Assembly: GCF_000195755.1 (NCBI RefSeq)
Contig: NC_002937.3
Coordinates: 2,790,001-2,822,000, forward strand
DNA length: 32,000 nt
Source of the DNA: Nitratidesulfovibrio vulgaris str. Hildenborough
GTDB lineage: Bacteria > Desulfobacterota > Desulfovibrionia > Desulfovibrionales > Desulfovibrionaceae
Direction: 5' to 3'
Below are positions 5,182 through 24,225 of this stretch, piece after piece. The first letter of the stretch is position 1, and the number at the start of each line of letters is the position of its first letter. The notes below the pieces were generated by a model. That model made no database searches. It saw nothing but the letters and a program-made list of their open reading frames with translations, and had not been told where the DNA came from. Position numbers and translations under genes: made by a program.

Positions 5182-5217
5182 CCTACTGAACGTATCGTTC
5201 GCGCTATGCCGCCGCAA

Positions 5218-6427: not shown

Positions 6428-6456
6428 AAGGCCCCCTGCGGGGCCTTTTTCGTTTT
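6428..6456 (+). terminator. Rho-independent terminator inside the lctP upstream region
   Basis: AAGGCCCC-CTGC-GGGGCCTT (8-bp stem, 4-nt loop) followed by TTTTTCGTTTT. It is oriented for the plus strand only. Confidence 0.75.
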
Positions 6457-6534
6457 CCGTTCGTTTACCTTCGGCTATTGGTATCGTTCCATCACCTAGG
6501 GACACGAGCGGACTTACCCCGTCGCAGGCATTCA

Positions 6535-6566
6535 GGGCCGGGACACCGCAAGTGTCCCGGCCCTTT
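6535..6566 (+). terminator. Second terminator-like hairpin in the lctP leader
   Basis: GGGCCGGGACAC-CGCAA-GTGTCCCGGCCC (12-bp perfect stem) followed by TTTCGC. It lies 78 nt upstream of the lctP start codon. Confidence 0.5.
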
Positions 6567-6643
6567 CGCATGTTCCGGGGGGCACGCCCCACGACGTCAG
6601 GCAATCACCCGGCAGCCACCACCGCACCGGAGGAGCACAACGC

Positions 6644-8194
6644 ATGTACACAGCTTCAGTCCTACTGGCCTTTCTTCCCGTGGTCGCCATCTTCCTGCTG
6701 TTGCTCGTGTATCGCGTCGCAGCGGATACGGCGGGCTACATCGGCTGGGGTGTCGCCGCCCTCGTGGCCATCTTCTGGTTCGACACACCCGTGCAGGTCG
6801 TCCTGCTGGCAAGCGCGGCCGGGCTTGTGGCCTCGCTGCCCATCACGCTGGTCATGGGTGCGAGCATCCTGCAGATTTCCGTGATGCAGGAGACGGGCGC
6901 GGTGGCGCGCGTCGTGGCGCTCATGAAGAGCATCGCCCCCGGCCAGCAGGCCGTTCAGATCATGCTCATCAACGTGGGCTTCGGCATCCTGCTGACGTCA
7001 CTGGGAGCGGTGACGGTGTCGATCCTGCCGCCCATCATGCTGGCGCTGGGCTATTCCACCATGACGGCCATCCTGCTGCCCGCCATCGGGTACGACGCCC
7101 TGTGCACCTATGCCCTGCTCGGCATTCCCGCCGTGGTGTACGCCAACTTCGTAGGCCAGCCGGTCAACGAGGTCGGCGGCTACTTCGCGCGGTACATGCC
7201 CGTCATCTCGACCTGCATCGCACTGGGCATGCTCCAGCTCACCGGGGGCATGAAGATGGTGCGCAAGGGCCTTGTCCCCGCACTTGTGGCAGGCCTCACG
7301 GCGGGCTTCACGGCCATATTCATGGCCCGCCTCGGGCTGGTCACCATCACGGGCATCGCAGCGGGCCTTGCGGTCATCGCCGTGCTGATGCTGTACATCC
7401 GCCTCACGGGCAAGCCCCTCCGCGACAGGAACCTGCTTGCCGAGAACGACCTCGCGGCGGAACGCCACCTGTCACTGGCGGCGGCCTGTTCACCGTGGAT
7501 TCTGCTGACCGTGGTCTCGCTCGTGCTCAATGCGCCCTTCCTGCCGTTCTTCGACTTCACCTTCAAACAGCTCTCCATGCCCGTGGAGATCATCCCGCGC
7601 TCGCCCGAGAGGATTCGCCTCTTCTGGCAGGCGTACTTCTGGGTCATCGTGTGCACCTTCGCCGCGCTGCCCTTCCTCAAGGCCACGAAGGCGCAGGTGA
7701 CCTCGGCCCTCGGCAAGGCTGGCAAACGCGCCCTGCGACCCATGATGTCCGCCTCGGTGTTCTTCGCCATCGCCTACGTCATGAACCATTCGGGCAAGAC
7801 GCCTGACTGGGTGCTGGCCGACAAGCTGCACAACATGGTCTACCTCATGGCAGATGCCTCGGCGGCGACATTCGGCAAGTTCTATCCGCTGGTGGCCCCC
7901 TACCTCGGGCTTCTGGGCGGCTTCATCAGCGGTTCCGAATCGTCGTCCATCGCCATGCTCACCAAACTGCACCTCTCCACTTCGGAGTCCATCGGGGCCT
8001 CGGGTCTGCTGGTCGCAGCGGCCAGCGGCATCGGTGGCGGACTCGCCAGCGTGATATCACCCGCCAAACTGCAGAACGCAGCGGCGAGCATCGACCGCAT
8101 CCGTGACGCGGCACAGGCCATTCGCCCGGCCTTCGTCATCGCCATGCTCATCACGGGTGTCTGTTCGGTGATGACCATGTTCTGGGCCTATTAG
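6644..8194 (+). CDS. L-lactate permease family transporter (LctP family)
   Basis: 516 aa and polytopic. The C-terminal segment LGLLGGFISGSESSSIAMLTKL...VAAASGIGGGLASVISPAKLQNAAA parallels the conserved LldP segment GWLGVFLTGSDTSSNALF...ANTTGGVTGKMISPQSI. GGAGGAG SD lies 8 nt upstream of the ATG. Confidence 0.9.
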   Translation: MYTASVLLAFLPVVAIFLLLLVYRVAADTAGYIGWGVAALVAIFWFDTPVQVVLLASAAGLVASLPITLVMGASILQISVMQETGAVARVVALMKSIAPGQQAVQIMLINVGFGILLTSLGAVTVSILPPIMLALGYSTMTAILLPAIGYDALCTYALLGIPAVVYANFVGQPVNEVGGYFARYMPVISTCIALGMLQLTGGMKMVRKGLVPALVAGLTAGFTAIFMARLGLVTITGIAAGLAVIAVLMLYIRLTGKPLRDRNLLAENDLAAERHLSLAAACSPWILLTVVSLVLNAPFLPFFDFTFKQLSMPVEIIPRSPERIRLFWQAYFWVIVCTFAALPFLKATKAQVTSALGKAGKRALRPMMSASVFFAIAYVMNHSGKTPDWVLADKLHNMVYLMADASAATFGKFYPLVAPYLGLLGGFISGSESSSIAMLTKLHLSTSESIGASGLLVAAASGIGGGLASVISPAKLQNAAASIDRIRDAAQAIRPAFVIAMLITGVCSVMTMFWAY

Positions 8195-9590: not shown

Positions 9591-10373
9591 TCAGTTCAAT
9601 TCTCTGCCAACCCACACCGCACGTCCAATAATGCGTATTCCATTGGAAAGGTCGCCTCGAGCGTCAATTTCCAGAGGTGGATACACGGCGTTATAGCTTG
9701 AAAGCACGATTTTTCCCGGCGCTGCATTCACCATCTTCAGATAGACCACATCCTCAACGCCAACAGCATAAACTTTGCCCGCGCGCGGGTCTCTCTGGCT
9801 CTGGTCGATGAGAACCACGTCGCCGTTCATTATATTGGGTTCCATACTATCGCCATCCACGCGCATCAGCACCATATGCGAAGGCTGCCCCTTGCGTAGC
9901 AAGAAGTCTGTGCGGAAGGCATAGCGACGCTCAATATTAGCCCCAGTCTCAAAGCTGCCATTGCCTGCACTCAAGCGGGCTTCGACCATAGGTAGCATCA
10001 TGATTTCGCAGTCGTCACATTCGATGACGTGCGCCTTTCCGGCATGAGCCAAGGGGGGCGTCATTTCTTCCTGCGCAGACTCAGACTTTGTAACGACACG
10101 AGCTATGGGGTCGCCCGCCCGAAGCATTCCCACGCGGACGGGTTCCATTGCTACAGCTTCAGGCTGTCTTCCAAAGAAGAGCCAATCACTGCTGATTCCT
10201 GTTTTTTCAGCAAAAGACTGTATCCACACCGGGGGAACTTCCCCACGCTTGCGCGCACCGCTAACCGACTGCGGCGTTATGCCCAGTATTCTTGCTAAAT
10301 CAGAATCGTTTTTAGCTCCAGAGGCGACCATCAGTCGTTCTAGAACGGCTTCAAACGATTTCGCTCTTTCCAT
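9591..10373 (-). CDS. Prophage repressor, HTH + peptidase S24 (LexA/CI-like, putatively autocleavable)
   Basis: N-terminal HTH SDLARILGITPQSVSGARKRG. C-terminal S24 signature VDGDSMEPNI (Ser nucleophile) and VVYLKMV (Lys). ATG 10373 with GGAG 6 nt upstream; the raw ORF starts at a TTG at 10394. Confidence 0.88.
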   Translation of the reverse strand: MERAKSFEAVLERLMVASGAKNDSDLARILGITPQSVSGARKRGEVPPVWIQSFAEKTGISSDWLFFGRQPEAVAMEPVRVGMLRAGDPIARVVTKSESAQEEMTPPLAHAGKAHVIECDDCEIMMLPMVEARLSAGNGSFETGANIERRYAFRTDFLLRKGQPSHMVLMRVDGDSMEPNIMNGDVVLIDQSQRDPRAGKVYAVGVEDVVYLKMVNAAPGKIVLSSYNAVYPPLEIDARGDLSNGIRIIGRAVWVGRELN

Positions 10374-10394
10374 GTTGAACTCCGAAATTAACAA

Positions 10395-10559: not shown

Positions 10560-11090
10560 GTGCACACCCGGTCAACGTCCAGAGCGTTAGAGAGTCTGGA
10601 CGGTGACCTCACAAATGAACGGACGGTAACGGTGAACACGGTGACGCTCTCCCTCTTTGACGACAGCGCGGCACGCCTTGCCGGGCTGAACGCCACCCTG
10701 AAGACAGCCATGCAACGCACTATTGCGGCAAGTGGGCTGTCACGGGAGCAGGTCCTTGACCGCATGAACACGCTAGCGAAACAGGCGGGGGTGAAGCTCA
10801 CCACGGGCAACGCCCACCAGCTTTCGCTGGCGACGCTCGACAAATGGCTGAACCCGGCTGACCGCGAGCACCTGCCTTCCGTTCTGGCTCTCCATGTCTT
10901 CTGCCTTGCCGTGAACAACGTGCAGCCCTTGGCGCAACTGCTGGGGCTGCACGGTTGCGGCGTGATGACAGCCGAAGACAGACGGCTGCGCGACTACGGG
11001 CAGGTCTGCTGGGAATCAAAGCGGCGGCGCAAGGCCGCCCGTCAACTGGAACTGGAGCTTGAACATGGACTTTCGCACGGGCGCAGGTAA
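10560..11090 (+). CDS. Early protein of unknown function, possible DNA-binding (start uncertain)
   Basis: First rightward ORF with GC3-rich coding. The segment SGLSREQVLDRMNTLAKQAG is HTH-like. The GTG at 10560 lacks an SD. An alternative GTG at 10641 has GGTGA 5 nt upstream. Confidence 0.5.
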   Translation: MHTRSTSRALESLDGDLTNERTVTVNTVTLSLFDDSAARLAGLNATLKTAMQRTIAASGLSREQVLDRMNTLAKQAGVKLTTGNAHQLSLATLDKWLNPADREHLPSVLALHVFCLAVNNVQPLAQLLGLHGCGVMTAEDRRLRDYGQVCWESKRRRKAARQLELELEHGLSHGRR

Positions 11091-11324: not shown

Positions 11325-13520
11325 ATGGCAAAGACGCCTGACGCATACACCACGCAAGAGTTGGTGCCGCTGCTGGGTATACAAACCCGTGCTGTTCAGA
11401 TTCGCGCCAAGCGAGAAGGCTGGGCCTCTCGCCCCCGCAAGGGGCGTGGCGGCGGCAACGAGTGGCTTGTGGCGTCCATGCCCCGCGCAACCCGCGAGGC
11501 CATCGCAGACGGCCTTCTGCGCACATCGGCCCCCGCATCGCTTCCCGCGACTTCGGCCCCTGCCGAGACCCGCCCGGCCCTGCCGCCCATCGACCCGGCA
11601 GACCCTCGCCGGGGCATCGTGGCCCGCATGGCGTCGCTTTCGGGCTACACCCAGCGCCAGCGCGAAGTGGCCTTCGCCCGGCTGGCCTTCATCCGCGAGA
11701 TTGAGCGTCTTTCGGTGCTCACCGGCGTGGAGGCCGCCATCAACAAACTGGTGCAGGACGCTGGCGACGGCGCGCTGCCCCCGCATCTGATGGACTTGGT
11801 GCGGGCAGCCAACGACCGTTACGGCGACGGCGGCAAGCGCGGCCTGTCGCGGCGCAGACTGTATGCGTGGCGGGCGGGCTACTTGGCCATGGGTGAAGAG
11901 GCACTGGTGCCCAAGCACGCCACGCCCGACCTCTCTGTGCCACCGTGGGCGGACGCCTTCATGACCCTGTTCCAGCGGCCGCAGAAGCCGTCCATCGCAC
12001 GGGCGCACCGTGACCTGTGCAAGGCTTACGCGACCGGTGAATTGGGTGAACTAGCGGGACCGCCGCCCTCCATCCACGCCGTGCGGCGGTGGGTGGCCAA
12101 GGTGGCGCGGCCCGACCTTGAGCGTGGACGCAAGACCGGCAACGCGCTGCTCAAGATGCAGCCGCACCAGCGGCGGTCTACGGCGCACATGCTGCCGGGC
12201 GACTGCTACACGGCGGACGGCACCACCTTCGACGCCGAGATACGCGACCCGTACAACGGCAAGCCGATGAAGCCCGAAATCACGCTGGTTCTGGACGTGG
12301 CCACGCGCCGTTGCGTGGGCGTGTCACTGAACTACGCGGAGAACGCACAGGGGGTGCTCGACGCCCTGCGCATGGCCTGCCTGTATGGCGGCGTGCCCGC
12401 CATGTTCTATTCGGACAACGGCCCCGGCTACGACAACCGCCTGCTGAACGCCCCCGGCACGGGGATGCTGGCGCGCCTTGGCATAGAGCGGCGTGCCTCC
12501 ATTCCCGGCAGACCGCAGGGCAAGGGCCTGATGGAACGCGCGGTGAAGACCATCTGCGAACCCGTGGCGAAGGCCATGCCCACATGCTCGCACCGCGACA
12601 TGGACGGCGACGCGGCCAAGAAGGTCTACAAGATTACCCGCGCCGACCTGAAACGCGGCGGGCGTTCGCCGCTGCTGCCCACGTGGGAGCAGTTCAAGAC
12701 GGCCATGCTTGAGCGCATCGTCGAGTACAACACCACTCCGCACCGGTCGTTGCCCGTCATCACCGACGAGAACGGCCGACGCCGCCACATGTCGCCGGAT
12801 GATGCGTGGAAGTACCACGAGGACAACGGCTGGCGGCCCGTGAGCGTACCGGCGGACATTTCCCATGAGGAGTTCATGCCCGCAGAACGCCGCATCGTGC
12901 GCACCGGCGAAGTGCGCTTCGGCGGTGGCGTGTACTTCTCGCACGACCTTGCCCCGTACCACGGCGACGCGGTGATGGTGCGTTACGACGTGTGGGACGC
13001 CTCGCGTGTCTATGTGTGGACGATGGATGGCCGCCGCATCTGCGAGGCCGTTCTGGACGCCAACAGCACGCCATACTTCCAGCAGAGCCAGATAGATGCG
13101 GCCCGTGAAAAGCGCGAGCAGGCGCAGTTGAAGCGCCTTGAACGCAAGGCGGCCGCCATCGCCCCCGGTTCATTCCTCACCGTGGCCACCGGCCGCACCC
13201 GTGAAACCCCGCTCATGGCCGACAGTCTCGCGCCCCGCGACCAGCTTCCGGCGCAAGAGACAGCCGCCGCCCCCGTCACCGTGGACGTGACCCCCCTTCG
13301 CCCCCAGACCACCGAACCGGAACGCCGCCCCTGCTTCGCGCACGCGCATGAGCGTTACGAATGGCTGATGCACCACAAGGACCGCTGGCTGGACAAGGAC
13401 GAACCTTGGCTGCGCCGCCATGTGGACACCATCGACTACGCCGACAACCACGAACGCTACGTGCATGAAGGCATCGCATGGCCGGGCTGGAAGGCCGAAA
13501 CCGACAGCGAAAAGGATTAG
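11325..13520 (+). CDS. MuA-like DDE transposase
   Basis: 731 aa. N-terminal Mu-type HTH (TTQELVPLLGIQTRAVQIRAKREGW). DDE/rve core (LVLDVATRR, FYSDNGPGY, RPQGKGLMERAV). Size and position match Mu A. Confidence 0.92.
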   Translation: MAKTPDAYTTQELVPLLGIQTRAVQIRAKREGWASRPRKGRGGGNEWLVASMPRATREAIADGLLRTSAPASLPATSAPAETRPALPPIDPADPRRGIVARMASLSGYTQRQREVAFARLAFIREIERLSVLTGVEAAINKLVQDAGDGALPPHLMDLVRAANDRYGDGGKRGLSRRRLYAWRAGYLAMGEEALVPKHATPDLSVPPWADAFMTLFQRPQKPSIARAHRDLCKAYATGELGELAGPPPSIHAVRRWVAKVARPDLERGRKTGNALLKMQPHQRRSTAHMLPGDCYTADGTTFDAEIRDPYNGKPMKPEITLVLDVATRRCVGVSLNYAENAQGVLDALRMACLYGGVPAMFYSDNGPGYDNRLLNAPGTGMLARLGIERRASIPGRPQGKGLMERAVKTICEPVAKAMPTCSHRDMDGDAAKKVYKITRADLKRGGRSPLLPTWEQFKTAMLERIVEYNTTPHRSLPVITDENGRRRHMSPDDAWKYHEDNGWRPVSVPADISHEEFMPAERRIVRTGEVRFGGGVYFSHDLAPYHGDAVMVRYDVWDASRVYVWTMDGRRICEAVLDANSTPYFQQSQIDAAREKREQAQLKRLERKAAAIAPGSFLTVATGRTRETPLMADSLAPRDQLPAQETAAAPVTVDVTPLRPQTTEPERRPCFAHAHERYEWLMHHKDRWLDKDEPWLRRHVDTIDYADNHERYVHEGIAWPGWKAETDSEKD

Positions 13521-13528
13521 GAGACGCC

Positions 13529-14314
13529 ATGTTAAAGCAATTCGTCAGAACGGAGAACTACACGCGCTTCACGGCGGGCATTCAGGCCGTGGAACAGCGG
13601 GGCGCGGCCGAGGCGGGCATGATGCTCGTCCACGGTGCGCCGGGCTTCGGCAAAAGCCACATCGTCTACCATTGGGCCATAGAGGCCGGGGCCGTGTTCC
13701 TGCGGGCCAACGTGGACTGGACGCCCAAGTACTTCCTCGTGGAACTGGCCAAGGAACTGCGCATCGACCCGCGCGGCACGGCGCAGCAACTGTTCGGCCG
13801 CCTGCTTGAGCATGTGGTGGAGACACAGGCCCCGCTGGTCATCGACGAGGCCGAGTTCACCCTGCACCAGAACGCCGCCGTGCTGGAGAAGATACGCGAC
13901 CTTTCCGACCGCGCCGAAGTGACCGTGGTGCTCATAGGCATGGAGCGCATCCAGCAGAACATCGCCCGCCACAAGCAAATCAACAGCCGCATCGCACAGG
14001 TGGTGGAGTTCAAGCCCGCCACGCTGTCCGACGTGACCCATGCCTGCGCGCAACTGGCAGAGGTGCGGCTGACGCCCGAACTGGTGGGCGAAGTGCACCG
14101 CCTCTCCGGCGGCAGGATGCGCGAGGTGCTGAACATCATCGCCGCCATAGAGCGCGTGGCGAAGGTGAACGAACTGACCGAAGTGGGCATGGCCGATGTG
14201 TCCGGGGTGCCCCTGTCCTATGACTGGCAGGCCCACACCCCGCGCATGGTCGCCACGGGCAGGCAGACGGGGCGTGCATCCCGCGCCACGGCACAGGTGG
14301 CAGGGGGGCGTTAG
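13529..14314 (+). CDS. MuB-like AAA+ ATPase (DNA transposition / target-capture protein)
   Basis: Walker A GAPGFGKS and Walker B LVIDEAE, directly after the transposase. ATG 13529 with AGGAG upstream; the raw ORF start at 13478 overlaps the transposase. Confidence 0.88.
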   Translation: MLKQFVRTENYTRFTAGIQAVEQRGAAEAGMMLVHGAPGFGKSHIVYHWAIEAGAVFLRANVDWTPKYFLVELAKELRIDPRGTAQQLFGRLLEHVVETQAPLVIDEAEFTLHQNAAVLEKIRDLSDRAEVTVVLIGMERIQQNIARHKQINSRIAQVVEFKPATLSDVTHACAQLAEVRLTPELVGEVHRLSGGRMREVLNIIAAIERVAKVNELTEVGMADVSGVPLSYDWQAHTPRMVATGRQTGRASRATAQVAGGR

Positions 14315-14316
14315 TC

Positions 14317-14904
14317 ATGGCGTGGTACGGCAATGCCATTCTGACGCTGCTTGCTGATTGTTCGAGGACAAAGCAGGAGCTGGCAGACGCGCTTGGCATC
14401 AAGCCTCCTGCCGTATGTGACGCCTGCAAAAGGCTGCGCGCCAATGGATATGTCCAGTGGCACAATGGCTATTGGAATATCACTGACAAGGGATGGCAAA
14501 TGCTGGCCTCCGGCCAGCCGCTTAAGAGCGGCCCCGGCAAGGGCAACTCGCCTGCACGCGGACGCAGCACTCTGCGGGCCAAGGCGTGGCGGGCCATGCG
14601 GATGCTGGAGGGGTTCAGCCTCGACGACCTGCTGACCATGTTGTGCGACGGCAGCGAAGGCGACCCCTCGCGCAACCTTACGGACTACCTGCGTGCCCTT
14701 GTGGCGGCGGGCTACCTGATGCCGCTTCCCCGTCGGGGGAACGGCCGTCATCCGCAACGCTACCGCCTGCGCCGTGACCGCTACACCGGGCCGGACGCCC
14801 CGGCGTGGAACAAGCCTGAACGCACCCTGACAGACCCCAACACGGGCGAGGTCTTCCGCATCCCGCGCAAGCGCGACAGCGTGGAGGAGGCACCCCATGC
14901 CTGA
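14317..14904 (+). CDS. Early protein with two winged-helix-like (MarR-like) segments
   Basis: 195 aa. TKQELADALGIKPPAVCDACKRLRANGYV and LTDYLRALVAAGYLMPL resemble wHTH recognition regions. It is tightly coupled to the flanking genes. Confidence 0.6.
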   Translation: MAWYGNAILTLLADCSRTKQELADALGIKPPAVCDACKRLRANGYVQWHNGYWNITDKGWQMLASGQPLKSGPGKGNSPARGRSTLRAKAWRAMRMLEGFSLDDLLTMLCDGSEGDPSRNLTDYLRALVAAGYLMPLPRRGNGRHPQRYRLRRDRYTGPDAPAWNKPERTLTDPNTGEVFRIPRKRDSVEEAPHA

Positions 14905-15226
14905 CTGGCTGGCCCTGCTGCACAAGGCCGTCGAAGGTCGCACCAAGGCGGCCGTGGCGCGTGAACTTGGCGTGTCGCGTCCTTCGGTGAGCCTGCTTCT
15001 GGCAGGCCGCTACCCCGGCCGCACCGACCACATGGCCGCACGCGTTCTGGCTGTCTACGGCCGCATCGCCTGCCCGCACCTTTCCGCAGACATCACCACG
15101 GCGCAGTGCCGCAGCATGAGCGGCCCGGTGCCCACATCAAGCCCGGCGGCCATCCGCCATTGGCGGGCGTGCCAAGCGTGCCCGCACAGACCATCAACCA
15201 CACCATCAACCGACGGAGGAAACTAG
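14897..15226 (+). CDS. Small HTH DNA-binding early protein
   Basis: 109 aa. HTH KAAVARELGVSRPSVSLLLAGR. The start overlaps the upstream stop by 8 nt. Confidence 0.6.
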   Translation: MPDWLALLHKAVEGRTKAAVARELGVSRPSVSLLLAGRYPGRTDHMAARVLAVYGRIACPHLSADITTAQCRSMSGPVPTSSPAAIRHWRACQACPHRPSTTPSTDGGN

Positions 15227-15228
15227 AC

Positions 15229-15711
15229 ATGGCGACAGCAGCGAAGAAGCTTCAGAAGGCACAGGCCAACGTCACCCCCATGCCCACGGGCACGGTGAAG
15301 CTGGGACGCGAGACCTTTCCGGCCCCCGCAACCCTTGTGGAACTGGTGCGCAAGGGGCGCGACATCAAGATGATGATGGATGAACTGAAGGCCGAACTCG
15401 ACACGGTGAACGCCGCCATTCTGGCGGAAGTGCCCCGCTGGATGGACGGCGTGGGGACCCTGCACATCATCACCGAAGGCGTGGACTGCACCGTGACCTT
15501 GCGTGACGCGGTGGCCATCGAAAACGTGGGGACCCTGCGCGAACTGCTGGGCGACCGCTTCCCCGACCTCGTGAAGGAGAAGGTGAACTTCACCCCCGAA
15601 GCCAAGCTGGTCGCCATCGCCACCGACGGTGACCACCCTCTGGCCCGTGACGTGGCCTCCTGCCTGCGGATTCAGGAAGCCAAGGCCTCCGTCAGCTACA
15701 AGGCCGCCTAG
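15229..15711 (+). CDS. Early protein, possibly Gam-like host-nuclease inhibitor
   Basis: 160 aa from ATG 15229 (GGAGGA SD). An N-terminal coiled segment (DIKMMMDELKAELDTVNAAILAEV) followed by a beta-rich region loosely parallels Mu Gam in layout, size and genomic position. Not verified. Confidence 0.4.
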   Translation: MATAAKKLQKAQANVTPMPTGTVKLGRETFPAPATLVELVRKGRDIKMMMDELKAELDTVNAAILAEVPRWMDGVGTLHIITEGVDCTVTLRDAVAIENVGTLRELLGDRFPDLVKEKVNFTPEAKLVAIATDGDHPLARDVASCLRIQEAKASVSYKAA

Positions 15712-15720
15712 GGAGAATGT

Positions 15721-15957
15721 ATGGCTCGCGACCTGTTGCAGCACGGGCGCATGGTGGCCCTGTTCGCGGAACGGGTGTTGCGCACGCCCGGTATGACCCC
15801 TGACGACATGCCGGAGCTTTCCGGCAACCCGGCATTCGGCAAGCTCTCCACGCGGGAACGGGCATCGGTGGCCCGGTCCATCAAGCACGGTGCGGCATCG
15901 AAGCTCATTGAGACGGGCTACCCGGAGGCTACGGTCAAGCGCATCCTGCGCGTGTGA
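15721..15957 (+). CDS. Hypothetical early protein (78 aa)
   Basis: GC3-rich ORF with GGGAGAATGT upstream of the ATG. No recognisable motif. Confidence 0.5.
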   Translation: MARDLLQHGRMVALFAERVLRTPGMTPDDMPELSGNPAFGKLSTRERASVARSIKHGAASKLIETGYPEATVKRILRV

Positions 15958-15968
15958 CGACCTGACTT

Positions 15969-16033
15969 GCGAAACCGCCCCCATGCGGGGCGGTCGTCGG
16001 AGCGTGGCGGCTCCGGCCTGACGAGCAGCCGAA
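15969..16033 (+). repeat. Structured intergenic repeat, copy 1 (65 nt, two hairpins)
   Basis: GCGAAACCGCCCCCATGCGGGGCGGTCGTCGGAGCGTGGCGGCTCCGGCCTGACGAGCAGCCGAA. Hairpin 1 is ACCGCCCC/GGGGCGGT. Hairpin 2 is CGGAGC-GTGGCG-GCTCCG (15998-16015). Confidence 0.9.
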
Positions 16034-16042
16034 GGAAGAGAA

Positions 16043-16282
16043 ATGACGGTAATTAGCTCACACCTGTCTGTGGCGATTGACTACCTCTTGGATGAATCCG
16101 CTTTTCCTGATGAGAGGTTGGCGGGGAAGTTCCTGCGGGACGGCGTCCCGATGAGTGCAGAGGAGGTTCGCGAGTACCTTCGCGAGGAGAAGGCGGCAGG
16201 GAAGAAGCTTTTTCCTCTCAAGCCCTGTGACCGATTCGACCCCTATGAAAAGGGGTGCCTTGGGCACGAAGTAGAAGCGTAG
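16043..16282 (+). CDS. Hypothetical 79-aa protein, lower-GC cargo bracketed by the structured repeat
   Basis: GAAGGAAG SD upstream of ATG 16043. The 5' half is visibly AT-richer than the neighbouring genes. Acidic product, no motif recognised. Confidence 0.55.
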   Translation: MTVISSHLSVAIDYLLDESAFPDERLAGKFLRDGVPMSAEEVREYLREEKAAGKKLFPLKPCDRFDPYEKGCLGHEVEA

Positions 16283-16348
16283 CGAAACCGCCCCCCCATG
16301 CGGGGCGGTCGTCCGGCGGTGGCGCGCCGGGCCTGACGAGCAGCCGAA
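16282..16348 (+). repeat. Structured intergenic repeat, copy 2 (67 nt)
   Basis: GCGAAACCGCCCCCCCATGCGGGGCGGTCGTCCGGCGGTGGCGCGCCGGGCCTGACGAGCAGCCGAA. Hairpin 2 is CCGGCG-GTGGCG-CGCCGG (16313-16330), with the same loop as copy 1 and four compensatory stem pairs. Confidence 0.9.
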
Positions 16349-16363
16349 CAATGCAAGGTGAAC

Positions 16364-16798
16364 ATGGCAGAACAGCGCAAGAAAACAGCCTCGCTTTTGC
16401 TGTCTGTAGACGGCAATCCCCCTGTGAGTCTGGAATGCTTCCCGGCGGAACAATGGCCCGCCGCAGGAGGTGCGCCGGGCCTTTTCCGGGTGCGCCAGGG
16501 CGGCAAGTGGCTGCGGGGGCATGGCGGCGAGAAGTACCACTTCATGACGCCCGAAGCCCTTGGCGGCCACATGGCCCAACTCCTGTGCGGGCATGAACCC
16601 GCCCCGGCCCCTGACCTGCCGGTGGGGACGCCGGTCCGCGTGCCCAATGGCAACACCTTCGCCGGGCTTCCCCTGTACGACGCCACGCGCACGGCCACGC
16701 CTCCGTTCCAAGCGGCGGACGGTCGCTGGCATGTGCATGTCCTGCTGTACGGGCGAGGGCTTGTGGCCGTGCCCTGCGACACCCTGAAACACCGTTGA
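16364..16798 (+). CDS. Hypothetical early protein (144 aa)
   Basis: ATG 16364 with AAGG 5 nt upstream; the raw ORF begins at a GTG at 16358. No motif recognised. Confidence 0.55.
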   Translation: MAEQRKKTASLLLSVDGNPPVSLECFPAEQWPAAGGAPGLFRVRQGGKWLRGHGGEKYHFMTPEALGGHMAQLLCGHEPAPAPDLPVGTPVRVPNGNTFAGLPLYDATRTATPPFQAADGRWHVHVLLYGRGLVAVPCDTLKHR

Positions 16799-16806
16799 GG
16801 TGCCCC

Positions 16807-17223
16807 ATGCGTGAAGAATCGCGTGCCTCCCTGCTGGCCAAGCTGCATATAGCCAAGAAAGACCTTGGCCTTACGGACGACATCTACCGCGACATGCTGG
16901 AAGGCGTGACGGGCAAGCGTTCCGGTGCCGACCTGTCGGTGAAGGAACTGGTGGCCGTGATAGCCGAACTGCGGGCCAAAGGGTGGCAACCCAAGAGCAC
17001 CCCGCGCTACGGGCGCAAGCCCAAGGTACGGGGAGCGGCCAAGCCCCAGCTTGCCAAGGTGGAGGCATTGCTTGCCGACAATGGCAGGCCGTGGGCCTAC
17101 GCTGAAGGCATCGCCAAGCGGATGTACGGTGTGGAGAAGCTTGAATGGTGCGACGAGGCGCAGATTTCCGGCGTCATGGTGGCACTGGTGAAGGACGCCC
17201 GCCGCCGCAAGGGGAAGGCATGA
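16807..17223 (+). CDS. GemA / Mu gp16-like regulatory protein (DUF1018 type)
   Basis: LLAKLHIAKKDLGLTDDIYRDMLEGVTGKRSGADLSVKELVAVIAELRAKGW is the characteristic gp16/GemA N-terminal signature. Position upstream of mor, as in Mu-like phages. Confidence 0.8.
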   Translation: MREESRASLLAKLHIAKKDLGLTDDIYRDMLEGVTGKRSGADLSVKELVAVIAELRAKGWQPKSTPRYGRKPKVRGAAKPQLAKVEALLADNGRPWAYAEGIAKRMYGVEKLEWCDEAQISGVMVALVKDARRRKGKA

Positions 17224-17708
17224 GCGCAAGCATGAACCTTCTGCCGGGTATGCCGTCGCGCCCTGCATTGTCCGAAGCCGCCTTGCCTGCGGCAGCCCGC
17301 GAGATAGCGGCGCTGGTGGGGCTACCCAAGACCCTGCAACTGGTGGAACGCCTTGGTGGCACGACGTTCCCCGTGCCCAAACGCGCCACCAAGGTGGGCG
17401 AACTGCGCTACTTCATGCTTGCCGACGTGGTGGGGGTGGAGGCGGCCGACCTGTTGTGCAGACACTACGGCGGAACCAACCTGTACGTGCCCCGTTGTGC
17501 CGAAGCCCTACGCAAGGCGCGTGATGCGGAAATCGTGGCGACCTTCGACCGTGAGACGAAAGAGAAGAGTGCTAGCGCGGTTGTCGCGGAACTCGCCTTG
17601 CGGTATAGGCTGTCCGACAGGCGTATATGGCTGATACTCAAAGAGGTCCCTGTCCTCGCCGTCATGGAACACATCAACCCCGCCCGCAGGCAAGGGCGGC
17701 TGTTGTAG
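17220..17708 (+). CDS. Mor/C-family transcriptional activator (middle/late gene activator)
   Basis: 162 aa. C-terminal HTH AELALRYRLSDRRIWLILKE and core LLCRHYGGTNLYVP are typical of the Mor family. The ATGA start overlaps the GemA stop. Confidence 0.8.
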   Translation: MSASMNLLPGMPSRPALSEAALPAAAREIAALVGLPKTLQLVERLGGTTFPVPKRATKVGELRYFMLADVVGVEAADLLCRHYGGTNLYVPRCAEALRKARDAEIVATFDRETKEKSASAVVAELALRYRLSDRRIWLILKEVPVLAVMEHINPARRQGRLL

Positions 17709-17720
17709 AGGAGTAGCGAA

Positions 17721-18059
17721 GTGGTACGTTTATTTGCCCTTGTACTTCTATTGGTTACAATGCCCACGCTTGCTTTTGCAGATGATGCAGAGAGAGTAGA
17801 AAAACACAAAATCGGTGCCATGAAGGGTGACTACCAAGACCAACGCAACCTTGCTTATACTCTTTCAACGTCCAGTGACCCCTTCGTCGAGAACAAGATG
17901 CTCGGCTGCGCTTGGCGCAAGTTGATACTTCTTTCGGGAAGTCAACGAATCGATGCTACTGACATACAGAACGAAAAGTTCTATTGCGGCAAGCTCTCCC
18001 CTGAAGAACAGGCTGTCGCAACAAAGCAGGCAGAGCGCCTCTATAAAGAAATATACTAG
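17721..18059 (+). CDS. Secreted small protein (112 aa), lower-GC moron after mor
   Basis: GTG start with AGAGGAG 7 nt upstream. Signal peptide VRLFALVLLLVTMPTLAFA|DD. Two Cys residues. About 43% GC in its first 60 nt by hand count, against a GC-rich backbone. Confidence 0.7.
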   Translation: MVRLFALVLLLVTMPTLAFADDAERVEKHKIGAMKGDYQDQRNLAYTLSTSSDPFVENKMLGCAWRKLILLSGSQRIDATDIQNEKFYCGKLSPEEQAVATKQAERLYKEIY

Positions 18060-18082
18060 CCACTGAACCCCTTCAACCTGTC
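18060..18082 (+). repeat. Conserved 23-nt box, copy A (CCACTGAACCCCTTCAACCTGTC)
   Basis: 21/23 identical to 26806-26828, including a 15-nt exact run. It lies upstream of the lysis cassette, the Plys position in Mu. Confidence 0.85.
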
Positions 18083-18083
18083 A

Positions 18084-18130
18084 CCGCCCCCGGTCGCTGT
18101 CATTCTGACAGCGCCGGGGGCGGCCCCTTT
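18084..18130 (+). terminator. Strong rho-independent terminator after the mor-moron unit
   Basis: CCGCCCCCGG(T)CGCTGTCA-TTC-TGACAGCGCCGGGGGCGG (18 bp with a 1-nt bulge) followed by CCCCTTTT. Confidence 0.8.
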
Positions 18131-18171
18131 TCCGCCTCCTGCGTGACCTGAAACCACTAGGAGGCTTTCAC

Positions 18172-18534
18172 ATGCACATTCCCCGTTCAGTGCGCGCCGC
18201 CCGTCATGCACGGATGCTGTGGTGCGCGTTCATCGCTCTTCTGTTCCTGCTGGCCGTGGGCTGCATCGCCCCGCAACAGTTGCCCGTCATCCTGTACAAG
18301 GCGTCGCTCATCCTTCTGGCCGCCTTCACGGGTTACTGGATAGACCGTTGGGCCTTCCCCTACGCACGGCCCGACAGCTACCTCGTATCAGACTGGCGCA
18401 GGCAGCGCGGCTTTGTGCCGTGTGACGCCAATGACCCCATCGCGCGGGGCTATGCACGCATCTTCGCGGCCGCGCTGGTGCGCCGGGCCATCATCATGGG
18501 GGCGGCGATGCTGGCCGTGGGGCTGGGGCTGTGA
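18172..18534 (+). CDS. Putative holin (three predicted TM segments)
   Basis: 120 aa. Hydrophobic segments MLWCAFIALLFLLAVGCIA, ASLILLAAFTGYWI and AIIMGAAMLAVGLGL. TAGGAGG SD. It lies immediately upstream of, and overlapping, the endolysin gene. Confidence 0.45.
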   Translation: MHIPRSVRAARHARMLWCAFIALLFLLAVGCIAPQQLPVILYKASLILLAAFTGYWIDRWAFPYARPDSYLVSDWRRQRGFVPCDANDPIARGYARIFAAALVRRAIIMGAAMLAVGLGL

Positions 18535-19181
18535 TGAAGGCGCGTTCTTACCCCGTATTGCCCCCCTGCATGGGCTGTTGCCTGTTGTTGCTGGCCCTCA
18601 TGTGGACGGCAGCCGCCCACTCCGCCCCGGCTATCCCCATGCAGGCCATCCAGTACCGTTCTCAACTCATGCGCGAGGCCCGCGCACAGTGGGGGCTTTC
18701 TGCCCCCACGGCCACCTTCGCGGCGCAAGTGCATCAGGAAAGCGGCTGGAACGCCGACGCCGTGTCACCCGTGGGCGCGCAGGGGCTGGCGCAGTTCATG
18801 CCGTCCACGGCGCGGTGGCTCCCAACGGTGGCCTCGGACACGGGCAAGCCCTTGCCGTTCAACCCCGGCTGGGCGTTGCGTGCCCTTGTCACCTATGACC
18901 GTTGGCTGTGGCAGCGGGTGCAGGCCGTCACGCCCTGCGACCGCATGGCCCTTGCCCTAGCCGCCTACAACGGCGGCCTCGGCTGGGTGCAGCGCGATGC
19001 CCGGCTTGCCGCCGCACGCGGGCTGGACGCCCGGCGGTGGTGGGACAACGTGGAGACCGTCAACGCCGGACGCTCCGCTAACGCCAAGCGCGAGAACCGG
19101 GGCTACCCCCGGCGCATCCTGCTGACCCTCGAACCCGCTTACATGGCGGCGGGCTGGGGCGGGGGCATGTGCCATGAGTAG
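18534..19181 (+). CDS. Endolysin, soluble lytic transglycosylase (SLT) domain with N-terminal signal/SAR sequence
   Basis: The catalytic-Glu motif QVHQESGWNADAVSPVGAQGLAQFMPSTA is the SLT signature. N-terminal hydrophobic region CCLLLLALMWTAAAHSA. The ATG at 18534 overlaps the upstream TGA. Confidence 0.85.
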   Translation: MKARSYPVLPPCMGCCLLLLALMWTAAAHSAPAIPMQAIQYRSQLMREARAQWGLSAPTATFAAQVHQESGWNADAVSPVGAQGLAQFMPSTARWLPTVASDTGKPLPFNPGWALRALVTYDRWLWQRVQAVTPCDRMALALAAYNGGLGWVQRDARLAAARGLDARRWWDNVETVNAGRSANAKRENRGYPRRILLTLEPAYMAAGWGGGMCHE

Positions 19182-19593
19182 CTTCAACCCGGCATCCATC
19201 CTGTCCTTCCTGTGGCGGATACGCGGGGCGCTGGCGCTGCTGCTCGTGAGCGTTCTTCTGCTGGCCCTGTCGGTGCGCTGCAACACGCTACGCGCGACCC
19301 TTGCCGCCGAACAGACAGCCCATAACGCCACCCTCCACGCCCTGCTTGATGCCGTGCATGAGGGCGACCGCTGGAAGGCCCTGACCGAAGACGCCTACGC
19401 CAAGGCCGCCGCGCTCTCGGACTATGCCGACGCCTGCCTGAAGCGAGAGGCAGAGGCCCGCGCCGACTTCGCCGCCCGAACCACCATCATGACCAACGCC
19501 AGACCCCGCCCCCGCACCGATGCGGAAGCGAAGGAGGTTATCGACGATGCGACGCGCATGGCCGCTGCTGCTCGCCTTAATCGCCCTTGGTAG
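19174..19593 (+). CDS. i-spanin (Rz-like)
   Basis: N-terminal TM GALALLLVSVLLLALSV followed by a charged coiled periplasmic domain. Position after the endolysin. Confidence 0.6.
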   Translation: MSSFNPASILSFLWRIRGALALLLVSVLLLALSVRCNTLRATLAAEQTAHNATLHALLDAVHEGDRWKALTEDAYAKAAALSDYADACLKREAEARADFAARTTIMTNARPRPRTDAEAKEVIDDATRMAAAARLNRPW

Positions 19594-22520: not shown

Positions 22521-24225
22521 CGACATGCTGCGCACGGCGCGCGGCTTCGTCCATTCGTTTCTGGCTTCGGGCGGGGTGCAGACCCGAGACGGCGACAGGG
22601 CCGAGGCCACGGCCAACCTGTACTGGGAGCGTTGGGGCAACGCCGTGGACGGCCTCACCCCCGCGCGGCTGCGCAGCATCCTGCAAGCGGCGGACGACGG
22701 CGACATCCTGCGCCAGCACCTGCTCTTCGCCGACATGGAGGACAGGTGCGACCATCTGGCGGCGGAACTGTCGAAGCGCAAACGGGCCTTGCTGACCCTC
22801 GACTGGGAGATACTGCCGGGCCGCGCCGCAGACGCCAAGGCACAGCGCGTGGCCGATGCCGTGCGCGAACAGTTCGACGCGCTGGCCAACATCGAAGACC
22901 TCATGCTGGACATGGCCGACGGCATAGGCCACGGCTTCGCCGCCTTGGAGATACAGTGGGGGCGCGAAGGACGCACCCACCTGCCGCAGGCGTTCCACTT
23001 CAGGCCACAGGCATGGTTCCAGACCGCGCCAGAAGACCGCAACGCCCTGCGCCTGCGCGACGGCACGGCCGAAGGGGCCACCCTGCAACCCTTCGGCTGG
23101 GTGCTGCACACCCACCGCAGCCGTTCGGGCTGGCTGCCCCGCGCCGGGCTGTTCCGCGTGCTGGCATGGTCGTACCTCATCCGGGCCTACGCCCTTGCCG
23201 CCAACGCCTCCTATGTGGAGGTGCACGGTCTGCCGTTCCGCCTTGGCAAATACCCGCAGGGCAGCAACGAAGAAGACAAGGCGGCCCTGCGGCGCGCCTT
23301 GCAGTGCCTTGGCCGCGATGCTTCGGGCATCATCCCGCAGGGGATGGACATCATCTTCCAGACGCCCGCCAACAGCACGCACGACCACTTCGGCACGCTC
23401 ATTGCCCGGTGCGAACAGGGCATGAGCAAGGCCATCTTGGGCGGCACGCTGACCAGTCAGGCCGACGGCAAGACCAGCACCAACGCCCTTGGCAACATCC
23501 ATAACGAGATGCGGCACGACCTGCTGGTGTCGGACGCCTTGCAGATTGCGGGCACGCTGTCCCGGCAGGTGCTGGCCCCGCTGGCCATCCTGAACGAGGG
23601 CGTGGCCGATGCCCGGTTTCTGCCGTGGTTCCGCTTCGACACGCGCGAGGCCGAAGACCTTTCGACCTACGCCGATGCGTTGCCCAAGCTGGCGGGTGTG
23701 ATGCGCATCCCCGCCCGCTGGGCGCATGAGAAGCTGAAGATACCGCAACCCGAAGGGGATGAAGAGGTGCTGCGCGTGCCCGATGCCCTTGGCGGGCCGC
23801 GTGACGCGAACGCGGGGCCGGGGCCTAAAGGTGGCGCACCTACAGGCCAAGGTGAGGGTGCGGGCGAAGACGCGGCGCTCACGGCGGCCCTTGCGGCGGT
23901 CTCTGCCCCAACGACTGACCATGACGCTGGCCCTGAATCTGGCCCTGACGCTGGCCATGACGCTGCCCCTGAACCGGATGCAGACTTTCCCGACCAGCAG
24001 GCCGTGGACGCCATCGACCTGCCCGACGCGACCTTGCAGGCCGCCATGGAAGAACTGCTGGCCCCGCTCATGGCAGAACTCCAGCAAGGCACGGAACCGG
24101 GTGAACTGCTGGCGCGACTCGGGGAACTGTACCCCACGATGCCGGGCCGCAATCTGGAAGAACTGCTGGCGCGGGCGCTGTTCGTCAGCGAGGTGTGGGG
24201 GCGCGTGAGCGCCGCAGGTGAATAG
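22507..24225 (+). CDS. Portal protein (Mu gp29-like, DUF935)
   Basis: 572 aa. Its position after the terminase and the conserved-looking N-terminal and central regions (DGDILRQHLLFADMEDRCDHL...) are typical of the Mu gp29 family. GGAGGAGG SD. Confidence 0.85.
   Translation: MYSIDDMLRTARGFVHSFLASGGVQTRDGDRAEATANLYWERWGNAVDGLTPARLRSILQAADDGDILRQHLLFADMEDRCDHLAAELSKRKRALLTLDWEILPGRAADAKAQRVADAVREQFDALANIEDLMLDMADGIGHGFAALEIQWGREGRTHLPQAFHFRPQAWFQTAPEDRNALRLRDGTAEGATLQPFGWVLHTHRSRSGWLPRAGLFRVLAWSYLIRAYALAANASYVEVHGLPFRLGKYPQGSNEEDKAALRRALQCLGRDASGIIPQGMDIIFQTPANSTHDHFGTLIARCEQGMSKAILGGTLTSQADGKTSTNALGNIHNEMRHDLLVSDALQIAGTLSRQVLAPLAILNEGVADARFLPWFRFDTREAEDLSTYADALPKLAGVMRIPARWAHEKLKIPQPEGDEEVLRVPDALGGPRDANAGPGPKGGAPTGQGEGAGEDAALTAALAAVSAPTTDHDAGPESGPDAGHDAAPEPDADFPDQQAVDAIDLPDATLQAAMEELLAPLMAELQQGTEPGELLARLGELYPTMPGRNLEELLARALFVSEVWGRVSAAGE

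Follow-up and report, generated by a model that had tools for sequence, protein, structure and literature searches.

Among bacterial self-cleaving ribozymes there is a clustering in Mu-like phages, and one locus in Nitratidesulfovibrio vulgaris str. Hildenborough bears on its cause and on what purpose the ribozymes serve there. The window analysed, a 32,000-nt stretch of contig NC_002937.3, contains the early operon of a Mu-like prophage, within which two direct repeats of about 66 nt, both on the + strand, bracket a single small gene. What are these repeats, and what keeps them where they are? The locus is a good model for such questions, with a cultivable host, proven cleavage, and natural relatives that carry one, two or three ribozymes and different cargo.

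A repeat pair in the early operon

The repeats lie between the proximal and the distal early genes of the prophage, in the following order:

11325..14314, + strand: MuA-like transposase and MuB-like AAA+ ATPase (Pfam AAA_22/TniB), proximal early genes, upstream of the ribozymes
15721..15957, + strand: 78-aa gene (p78), phrog_23109, of unknown function, upstream of copy 1
15967..16034, + strand: type II hammerhead ribozyme, copy 1 (Rfam RF02276), the published HHR loc 2
16043..16282, + strand: 79-aa gene (p79), from the list of open reading frames, the cargo between the ribozymes
16280..16349, + strand: type II hammerhead ribozyme, copy 2 (Rfam RF02276), the published HHR loc 3
16364..16798, + strand: 144-aa gene (p144), phrog_18900, of unknown function, directly downstream of copy 2 and followed by gemA and mor
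16795..17708, + strand: gemA (PF06252) and mor (PF08765), distal early genes (Pfam E 5e-30 and 6e-15)

The transposase product, 731 aa in length, carries the HTH_Tnp_Mu_1, rve and Mu-transpos_C domains. A scan for the sigma-70 consensus only, covering 12000-17700, returned no sigma-70-like promoter; a promoter reading of the repeats was weighed and set aside.

As repeats, copy 1 spans 15969-16033 and copy 2 spans 16282-16348, with starts 313 nt apart (315 in an ungapped register) and 86% identity between them. A first-pass annotation of the letters alone had described a duplicated two-hairpin element, and at the sequence level that description is exact. The loop of the first hairpin reads CAUGC in copy 1 and CCCAUGC in copy 2, a difference of two additional C, while the stem of that hairpin and the flanks of the element are the same in both. 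In the second hairpin the loop GUGGCG does not differ, and eight substitutions in the stem form four compensatory pairs (copy 1 coordinates):

15999-16014: G-C in copy 1, C-G in copy 2
16001-16012: A-U in copy 1, G-C in copy 2
16002-16011: G-C in copy 1, C-G in copy 2
16003-16010: C-G in copy 1, G-C in copy 2

Coordinates also confirm the tight fit of each copy between its neighbouring genes, ahead of the next Shine-Dalgarno (SD) sequence and start codon. The stop codon of p78 lies 11 nt ahead of copy 1, which ends 9 nt short of the ATG at 16043 with the SD GGAAGAG inside the gap; copy 2 ends 15 nt short of the ATG at 16364, and its first G is shared with the TAG stop codon of the 79-aa reading frame (16280-16282), an overlap of one nucleotide. 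The enclosed reading frame is indeed richer in A + T than its surroundings (GC 0.558 vs 0.66-0.67 for its neighbours) and is annotated as a gene in public assemblies. Its protein has no match in Pfam, PADLOC or a PDB sequence search, belongs in PHROGs only to phrog_21034, a family without known function, and found a single other cluster, 97% identical, among 5.8 billion proteins.

Folding of the single sequences gives two stable, GC-rich hairpins in intergenic positions, with unexceptional energies (z = -1.9 and +0.2). Thermodynamics alone would not have singled out the element.

Two self-cleaving hammerhead ribozymes

The flanks common to both copies, GCGAAAC and CUGACGAGC, are the catalytic core of a hammerhead ribozyme, an identity that the earlier annotation recognised neither in the flanks nor in the element as a whole; working without tools, it had picked out a genuine catalytic RNA by its covariation only. 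Both copies are full-length type II hammerheads of Rfam family RF02276. Copy 1 scores 72.3 bits (E 1.9e-13, model positions 1-66 of 66) and copy 2 scores 64.2 bits over the full model (E 2.6e-11), both far above the curated gathering threshold of 37 bits, and with E-values of this order the repeat pair is not due to chance. A covariance model built in this analysis scores them at 79 and 76.5 bits, respectively. A permissive Rfam scan of the whole window found no third copy and no ribozyme of another class.

Every structural part of the ribozyme can be placed on the + strand of both copies, in the order stem II 3' strand, GAAA, stem III hairpin, C17, stem I hairpin, CUGANGA, stem II 5' strand:

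Stem II, 3' strand: G15969-C15970 in copy 1, G16282-C16283 in copy 2
G12A13A14 (GAA): 15971-15973 in copy 1, 16284-16286 in copy 2
Stem III (the first hairpin): 15974-15981 with 15987-15994 in copy 1, loop CAUGC; 16287-16294 with 16302-16309 in copy 2, loop CCCAUGC
C17: 15995 in copy 1, 16310 in copy 2
Stem I (the second hairpin): 15996-16003 with 16010-16017 and loop I 16004-16009 in copy 1; 16311-16318 with 16325-16332 and loop I 16319-16324 in copy 2
Core CUGACGA: 16018-16024 in copy 1, 16333-16339 in copy 2
Stem II, 5' strand: G16025-C16026 in copy 1, G16340-C16341 in copy 2
Pseudoknot: U16005-C16008 with G16028-G16031 in copy 1, U16320-C16323 with G16343-G16346 in copy 2
Predicted self-cleavage site: 15995..15996 in copy 1, leaving a 2',3'-cyclic phosphate on C17 and a 5'-OH on G1.1; 16310..16311 in copy 2 (C16310/G16311; hammerhead numbering for both)

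The topology is that of type II in both copies: stems I and III are closed by loops, and stem II, only 2 bp long, is open and made by the 5' and 3' ends. The core strand C3 U4 G5 A6 N7 G8 A9 is present in both as CUGACGA, the A15.1-U16.1 pair is found at A15974-U15994 and A16287-U16309, and position H17 is C, not G, in both. The pairs next to the core in copy 1 are G15996-C16017, G16025-C15970 and A15974-U15994, with equivalents in copy 2. Stems I and II are brought together by a tertiary contact in which UGGC of loop I pairs with GCCG of the 3' tail, a 4-bp pseudoknot of the kind described for the type II class (PMC3088659). In full model, core, topology, pseudoknot and prophage context alike, the two copies are ordinary members of RF02276 (Perreault et al. 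2011, PMC3088659).

Both ribozymes were in fact already known, being present in Rfam and validated experimentally in the same organism. Using cyPhyRNA-seq, Olzog et al. (2021, PMC8782182) reported HHR loc 2 at NC_002937.3:2,805,967-2,806,034 (+) and HHR loc 3 at NC_002937.3:2,806,280-2,806,349 (+). The Rfam coordinates of copies 1 and 2 plus 2,790,000 equal these positions, so the copies are loc 2 and loc 3; they agree further in length (68 and 70 nt), strand, spacing, sizes of the fragments and phage/HTH gene context, and the identity rests on coordinates and context together. All three hammerheads of D. vulgaris cleave during in vitro transcription (PMC8782182). Cutting the Rfam interval of copy 1 at the predicted site yields fragments of 29 nt and 39 nt, and cutting copy 2 yields 31 nt and 39 nt, in agreement with the sizes given by the same study, 29-32 nt and 39 nt.

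Cleavage-site reads were also obtained in vivo at both loci (PMC8782182). Loc 3, our copy 2, gave the most such reads and a strong signal; loc 2, our copy 1, was weak, with very few reads and a peak of the 5' fragment only. Most reads lay over the ribozyme motif alone, and in the authors' view some transcripts might begin or stop next to it; the cells studied were lysogenic, a state in which the early operon is expected to be largely repressed. The identity of the elements as ribozymes, their structure and their cleavage are established.

These data bear directly on whether the hairpins could be ordinary regulatory RNA (a terminator or attenuator, an antiterminator, or a site for a protein or RNase) rather than ribozymes. 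Two stable, GC-rich hairpins between genes would fit such a role, but neither has a U-tract, the bases after the hairpins being CGUC and CUGACGAG, and no terminator is predicted at either copy. An intrinsic, Rho-independent terminator was rejected on this ground, in keeping with the earlier remark that the elements are not canonical terminators, and nothing emerged in support of the antitermination or regulator-binding site that had been offered among the possible roles. The full hammerhead core is kept, moreover, in every one of the more than 170 copies collected, and cleavage at the predicted site has been demonstrated. There is next to no chance that a regulatory hairpin without catalysis is the right description, which the data of PMC8782182 effectively refute.

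Conservation and origin of the pair

The proposal that the structure itself is under selection stands, and comparison with 87 non-redundant, aligned relatives identifies its form as the + strand RNA. Across that set 96.6% of cells pair, vs 31-47% when the partners are slid. Stem I is paired in 98.1% of cells, with double changes at 8/8 of its pairs, the base of stem III in 99.1%, and the pseudoknot in 98.3%. Four compensatory kinds of pseudoknot occur among the relatives (GUCGCG/AGCGA, GUAGUG/AGCUA, GUUGUG/AGCAA and AUGGUU/AACCA). The CTGA and GA of the core are invariant in the alignment, but the search pattern had fixed both. G-U wobbles that pair in the + strand RNA only are found at U15997-G16016 and U16312-G16331, with many more in relatives. 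The invariant positions coincide with the catalytic core, and G-U wobbles accompany the covariation of the stems, a pattern that reflects selection on the RNA and not on DNA identity.

The four compensatory pairs that distinguish the two copies had been taken as covariation in their own right. Covariation across the relatives is genuine, but the difference within this pair is better explained by two ribozyme alleles that already existed than by compensatory drift in place, since both versions of stem I are found in other phages and, in a near-identical prophage, the position of copy 2 is occupied by the version seen here in copy 1. The same comparisons leave very little room for a tandem duplication that is recent, selectively neutral and confined to this prophage. 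Such an event would account for the 86% identity and for the shared stem III and flanks, but it is contradicted by the relatives: each stem I version occurs elsewhere, copy 1 is closer to the single ribozyme of another phage locus, L089 (90% identity), than it is to copy 2, and the paired layout recurs with other cargo.

As had been anticipated, the element occurs in other Mu-like phages. More than 120 viral contigs carry the same ribozyme on the coding strand, placed after a stop codon and ahead of the following SD, and 103/120 ribozyme-bearing contigs are Mu-like. It lies downstream of A/B in 152/154 cases and upstream of gemA/mor in 141/148. The stop codon is no more than 15 nt upstream in 142/147 copies and abuts or overlaps the ribozyme in 76 of these 147, and the next ATG mostly falls 4-16 nt past the ribozyme tail. 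When relatives were chosen by way of GemA, 5/5 carried the ribozyme, the search having given only 5 loci. At least two copies are present at 36/121 loci, most relatives having a single ribozyme, and the copies of any one contig are all on one strand; close relatives carry one to three, with unrelated cargo between them. What this work adds for the subtype is positional detail only: placement between A/B and gemA/mor, with a stop codon abutting the 5' end and an SD just past the tail.

Probable processing of the early mRNA and possible exchange of cargo

Very probably, then, the repeats are active type II hammerheads that are transcribed within the long early mRNA of the prophage and act on it as follows. 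Stem III, stem I and the 2-bp stem II fold around the conserved core, the 4-bp pseudoknot of loop I with the 3' tail locks the fold, and the RNA cuts itself after C17 by internal transesterification, at C15995|G15996 and C16310|G16311. The operon RNA would thereby fall into three pieces: one running from A and B through p78; a monocistronic p79 RNA of 315 nt (15996-16310) once both cuts are made; and one carrying p144, gemA and mor, with p144 as the first gene on the RNA freed by copy 2. The 3' end of each upstream product would be the stem III hairpin, bearing a 2',3'-cyclic phosphate; each downstream product would begin with a flush stem I hairpin that bears a 5'-OH, and a free SD would come next. 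The predicted folds of the products agree, with a flush 5' stem I hairpin, an unpaired SD and AUG, and a 3'-terminal stem III hairpin.

Given product ends of this kind, the ribozymes may serve as natural insulators that supply a standard, end-protected mRNA for each gene or block, with stability and translation independent of the neighbours; effects on mRNA stability and expression are what we infer from these ends. Processing of polycistronic phage RNA has been proposed before (PMC3088659, PMC6765202). The suggestion of an RNase-processing or mRNA-stabilising element came close, in that the RNA is processed, but it is the RNA that cleaves itself. A similar arrangement is the triple hammerhead flanking ardA in an Agrobacterium tumefaciens prophage, where tandem, same-strand ribozymes also surround single small phage genes in a polycistronic RNA, and these have been seen to cleave both in vitro and in E. 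coli (PMC3088659); it differs in belonging to another phage and in its cargo, an anti-restriction gene in place of an orphan 79-aa protein. The engineered insulator RiboJ (PMC6206723, PMC8383906) likewise sets a hammerhead before the ribosome binding site; its cleavage strips off the preceding sequence, leaves a hairpin with a 5'-OH ahead of the SD and frees expression from its context, and RiboJ raises the expression of insulated genes (PMC6206723). RiboJ, however, is synthetic and derives from a plant satellite RNA ribozyme of another topology, whereas the natural elements of this prophage are putative insulators.

A different fate of the excised p79 RNA would be circularisation or splicing, its 5'-OH and 2',3'-cyclic phosphate being ligated by the ribozyme or by an RtcB-type ligase. 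Each type II cleavage product retains one complete hairpin and the halves are joined only by the universal 2-bp stem II (GC/GC), so the excised RNA, with the 3' half of copy 1 at one end and the 5' half of copy 2 at the other, might in principle rebuild a ribozyme. The idea was put forward by Perreault et al., but they sought such products from similar arrangements and found none (PMC3088659); nothing in the window or in related loci points to it, and most relatives have but a single ribozyme. We consider it improbable here.

A further reading is that the elements are kept chiefly at the DNA level, as conserved sites of about 65 bp at which Mu-like phages swap or insert cargo by homologous recombination, with RNA cleavage incidental. 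The first-pass annotation had listed a recombination module among its options, and the exchange of genes that it asked about is real: related prophages carry differing genes between conserved copies. Over the variable stretch from the HTH gene to gemA, the ribozyme is the sole conserved nucleotide island among close relatives. Loci L127 and L128 share with the window 15969-16325 alone, at 97% identity and in another backbone, a segment made up of the first ribozyme, the gene for the 79-aa protein and the 5' portion of the second ribozyme; L122 and L126 diverge right after the last base of ribozyme 2, where they have an extra 88-aa gene. The junctions in L127 and L122 fall at 15969, 16325 and 16348. 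Breakpoints lie within a ribozyme ±12 nt in 87/503 cases vs 15.4 expected, and one is present at 59% of ribozyme sites vs 31% of ordinary gene boundaries nearby, an enrichment over gene boundaries of only about 2-fold, computed with crude gene calls and on related, non-independent phages.

That said, recombination is unlikely to be the main reason for keeping the elements. The conserved positions and the covariation are those of a catalytic RNA, cleavage has been shown by experiment (PMC8782182), and the ribozymes in any case occupy the stretch of the genome that varies most. A half-specific co-segregation through crossovers in the middle of the ribozyme, of the stem III half with the upstream gene and of the stem I half with the downstream gene, was looked for with a negative result; the similarity of the halves was 0.77/0.91 and 0.74/0.88 whichever flank was shared, vs 0.49/0.67 background. 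A recombination role as a secondary, DNA-level consequence of conserved ribozymes retains some support, real but indirect, from the sequence comparisons.

Two other systems of cassette-like exchange were considered. The promoter-early stem-loop (PeSL) motifs of T4-type phages (Arbiol et al. 2010, PMC2839356; Comeau et al. 2014, PMC4122927) are also short, conserved intergenic motifs around variable small reading frames in hyperplastic regions, and sit at junctions of insertion, deletion and replacement. A PeSL, however, is a promoter plus a terminator; no sigma-70-like promoter and no terminator was detected here and the conserved bases are a ribozyme core, so a cassette boundary of the PeSL type was rejected and the resemblance is one of behaviour at junctions only. 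Integron attC sites are likewise structured, imperfect palindromes after each gene of a cassette array, but they act as folded single-stranded DNA with the IntI integrase, whereas here it is RNA that is under selection. No integron integrase is present among the called genes of the region and, with the G-U wobbles and the RNA catalytic core, this led to rejection of an attC site.

The comparative data hint that insulation by the ribozymes and the mosaic exchange of genes are linked, in a way that can be tested. It is possible, though less likely than not, that the type II hammerheads of Mu-like phages mark plug-and-play cargo slots, giving any inserted gene a standard, insulated and end-protected mRNA at the RNA level and offering, at the DNA level, a conserved sequence of about 65 bp as the homology for the insertion, swap or loss of cargo between phages. 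Such a slot would then be present in the window, occupied by an orphan 79-aa gene, and if true this reading would explain the strong association of the ribozymes with the Mu-like early region. Locus L131 has the same layout as the window, p78-HH-X-HH-p144, with an unrelated 88-aa cargo as X; its p78 homologue, in the equivalent position, is 58% identical, and homologues of p144 directly follow a hammerhead both there and in L130.

The hammerhead ribozymes and their published record

Two direct + strand copies of a repeat, at 15969-16033 (copy 1) and 16282-16348 (copy 2), were seen both on re-reading 15700-16700 and by repeat search. As the first-pass annotation had claimed, the sequences are set apart by two additional C in the first loop and by eight substituted positions in the second hairpin. 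Scanned against Rfam, the window gave two matches in all, both to RF02276 (hammerhead ribozyme type II; gathering score 37).

Matches to RF02276 in the window
15967-16034, +, ribozyme 1 (copy 1): 72.3 bits, E 1.9e-13, model positions 1-66 of 66
16280-16349, +, ribozyme 2 (copy 2): 64.2 bits, E 2.6e-11, model positions 1-66 of 66

The annotation's reading as a structured RNA, with roles in processing and as a cargo slot, is partly right; the identity as a self-cleaving hammerhead was supplied by the Rfam match. The first hairpin is stem III and the second is stem I. GCGAAAC, common to both copies, comprises the 3' strand of stem II, G12A13A14 and A15.1, while CUGACGA is the C3-A9 core strand and the GC next to it closes a 2-bp stem II. 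The invariant loop GUGGCG forms a 4-bp pseudoknot with the conserved tail AGCCG (UGGC with GCCG); both the type II class and the loop I-to-tail pseudoknot were described by Perreault et al. 2011 (PMC3088659). Cleavage is predicted after C17, between C15995 and G15996 in ribozyme 1 and between C16310 and G16311 in ribozyme 2.

Olzog et al. 2021 picked Desulfovibrio vulgaris for its three predicted type II hammerheads, among them loc 2 (NC_002937.3:2,805,967-2,806,034) and loc 3 (2,806,280-2,806,349), both in sense orientation, with phage and HTH genes nearby (PMC8782182). These coordinates equal those of the window's Rfam matches plus exactly 2,790,000, and the fragments predicted from the cleavage sites (29+39 for ribozyme 1, 31+39 for ribozyme 2) match the reported 29-32 nt and 39 nt (PMC8782182). 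By coordinates, fragment sizes and gene context, the window ribozymes are loc 2 and loc 3. All three D. vulgaris ribozymes cleaved during in vitro transcription; in vivo, cleavage-site reads were strongest at loc 3 and very few at loc 2, with a 5'-fragment peak only (PMC8782182). The pair is thus known, catalogued and experimentally validated rather than new, and its RNAs have been shown to be hammerheads that cleave. The stretch 13043-19282 is also 100% identical to an NCBI assembly contig.

The C-run in loop III of ribozyme 2 (16291-16297) differs among otherwise near-identical prophages: one (L125, 3237-3310) has one C more, and in another (L122, 3237-3307) the loop is GUUGC. The pattern suggests slippage at a homopolymer in a tolerant loop.

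Covariation and spread among relatives

The annotation had suggested seeking the element in other phages, and an exact-pattern search for the subtype had matches in at least 120 contigs of IMG/VR and, among bacteria of many phyla, in at least 120 genomes. A covariance model, which the annotation had also proposed, was derived from an alignment of relatives and run on the window and related loci; it detects no copy in the window beyond these two, and a total of 171 full-length copies among the matches listed. In these matches each contig carries 1 to 11 copies, all on a single strand, with neighbours mostly 250-1300 nt apart.

Over 87 non-redundant copies from the matches listed, 96.6% of cells are paired under the hammerhead structure, versus 31-47% with partners slid, and double compensatory changes occur at 8 of 8 stem I pairs. 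The pseudoknot also covaries outside the exact pattern, as GUCGCG/AGCGA (three copies), GUAGUG/AGCUA, GUUGUG/AGCAA and AUGGUU/AACCA. G-U wobbles are frequent (in the window U15997-G16016 and U16312-G16331) and show that selection acts on the + strand RNA.

The pairing-preserving changes claimed for the second hairpin are present as four double changes, at 15999-16014, 16001-16012, 16002-16011 and 16003-16010. Their origin is another matter. Both stem I versions are present in other phages, copy 1 resembles the single ribozyme of the related locus L089 (90%) more than it resembles copy 2, and the copy-2 position in L122 holds the copy-1 version. These observations argue for two alleles, not in-place mutations: as the sequences read, the four substitutions would most simply be two alleles of a covarying stem united by exchange, and not four double mutations in place. 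As family-level covariation evidence they remain valid.

One viral contig, L029 (IMGVR_UViG_3300017605_000570, 57 kb), has an array of small genes separated by ribozymes: 11 type II hammerheads lie within about 4 kb (~2815-6750, minus strand) at intervals of 250-1100 nt, each scoring over the Rfam threshold; three have the GUCGCG/AGCGA pseudoknot. At two other loci (L080, 1026-1095; L100, 8155-8225) the core strand is CUAUGAAGAG instead of CUGAUGAG, with stems and tail intact; such copies would be either inactive relics or a core variant. The exact pattern also occurs in a contig labelled Halobacteriales archaeon MAG (L212, PXRT01000012.1, 3418-3484) and in records labelled Actinomycetota, Acidobacteria, Synergistota and Fusobacteria. 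Going by record labels, the host range of the subtype is very broad.

The early operon and its RNA

Among the genes linked to hammerhead and twister ribozymes in bacteria, those of Mu-like phages show the strongest association, for reasons unknown (PMC10085705, PMC6765202). In the window, both ribozymes lie in the early gene run, beside small ORFs named for their length in aa.

Early genes and ribozymes of the prophage
First in the run, same strand as the ribozymes: Ner-like regulator
11325-13520, +: MuA-like transposase
13478-14314, +: MuB-like ATPase
Between MuB-like ATPase and ribozyme 1, +: two HTH proteins, p160, p78, in that order
Between p78 and GemA, +: ribozyme 1, p79, ribozyme 2, p144, in that order
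16795-17223, +: GemA, 3' of p144
Ending at 17708, +: Mor, after GemA; then holin and a transglycosylase

Homologues of the window's MuA, MuB, GemA or Mor occur at 103 of 120 ribozyme-bearing viral loci. The ribozymes share the strand of these genes, following A/B in 152 of 154 placements and preceding gemA/mor in 141 of 148 (all among the matches listed). Relatives fetched via GemA alone carry 1-3 copies in five cases of five, at most ~1.1 kb upstream of gemA. Across 147 copies in the matches listed, a stop codon lies no more than 15 nt upstream in 142 and abuts or overlaps the ribozyme in 76, and the next ATG is mostly 4-16 nt past the tail. The overlap reported for the window is real, the G of the p79 TAG stop being also the first base of copy 2. 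No terminator-like site is predicted at either repeat, in line with the earlier view that they are not terminators, and no promoter-like sites are predicted there.

Given the ribozyme anatomy and cleavage, the early polycistronic RNA would be cut in three: A-B-...-p78, a 315-nt p79 RNA (15996-16310) and p144-gemA-mor. At the 3' end of upstream products, one unpaired base with a cyclic phosphate would follow the 8-bp stem III hairpin; product folds suggest that downstream products begin with a 5'-OH on a flush 8-bp stem I hairpin, leaving SD and AUG unpaired. In bacterial mRNA decay, such ends impede both 5'-monophosphate-stimulated RNase E attack and 3' exonucleases, so that each piece should decay at its own rate and carry a standard 5' leader, the same logic as in the engineered insulator RiboJ. 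The locus could serve as a test case for the role of hammerheads in Mu-like phages.

The left end of the prophage carries a divergent regulator pair, a CI/LexA-like repressor with a peptidase domain (9591-10394, -; phrog_4, phrog_6201) and a transcriptional regulator (10560-11090, +; phrog_2345). Genes left of about 9500 are apparently those of the host.

Cargo between the ribozymes

The 79-aa ORF bracketed by the copies (16043-16282) is AT-richer, as described, with GC 0.558 versus about 0.66 in its neighbours. Three close relatives, with MuB 84-85% identical to the window's, differ at this place.

Layouts from p160 to gemA (HH, type II hammerhead)
Window: p160-p78-HH-p79-HH-p144-gemA
L131: p160-p78-HH-(unrelated 88-aa ORF)-HH-p144-gemA
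L130: p160-HH-p144-gemA
L129: p160-HH-(about 600 nt of other sequence)-gemA

The different cargo that the annotation envisaged between conserved copies is thus found in L131, in the same slot. The near-identical prophages L122 and L126 (98.6%) are collinear with the window to 16348, the final base of ribozyme 2; an extra unrelated 88-aa gene follows, the match resumes at the p144 start, and their second ribozyme has the stem I and SD of copy 1. In L127 and L128, where the backbone differs and an HU-like gene lies upstream, the match is limited to 15969-16325 (97%), covering ribozyme 1, p79 and the 5' part of ribozyme 2. The truncated ribozyme 2 (L127 662-746, L128 676-760) keeps stem III, C17, the stem I 5' strand and loop, and stops mid-stem I without the CUGANGA core (16.5 bits, below an Rfam call). 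The remnant runs into the beginning of a 94-aa ORF, and the encoded protein shows 43% identity to the C-terminal half of p144. The three cargo genes have no mutual relation, and their GC (0.55-0.59) is below that of the backbone.

Breakpoints were taken as the ends of HSPs spanning 250 nt or more at 75% identity or higher, and the ribozyme zone as the ribozyme +/-12 nt. Genome-wide among related phages, 87 of 503 breakpoints fall in this zone, versus 15.4 expected; the region around the ribozymes is the most variable of the genome. Ribozyme-bounded slots do exchange cargo, and junctions do sit at ribozymes. The ribozyme may drive this exchange by supplying homology, or it may merely mark gene boundaries in a plastic region. 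Breakpoints occur at 59% of ribozyme sites versus 31% of ordinary gene boundaries no more than 2.5 kb away (odds ratio 3.2, with crude gene calls, in related phages); a sharper test, of ribozyme halves travelling with the adjacent flank, came out negative. PeSL motifs of T4-type phages behave similarly at junctions, although the window element is not a PeSL. The modest interest that remains lies in this tie between ribozymes and mosaic cargo exchange.

Right behind mor, a 112-aa ORF (17721-18059) has GC 0.469 against 0.66 for the backbone, a much stronger dip than that of p79. Its N-terminal part, MVRLFALVLLLVTMPTLAFA, resembles a signal peptide. The ORF matches phrog_5882 (unknown function), and L089 has a homologue of 58% identity in the corresponding place; lying between mor and holin, it resembles a cargo gene of the moron type. 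The repeat search also found a short tandem or periodic repeat inside a late-region ORF (23902-23973), with 12-nt and 24-nt steps and CTGGCCCTGA-like units.
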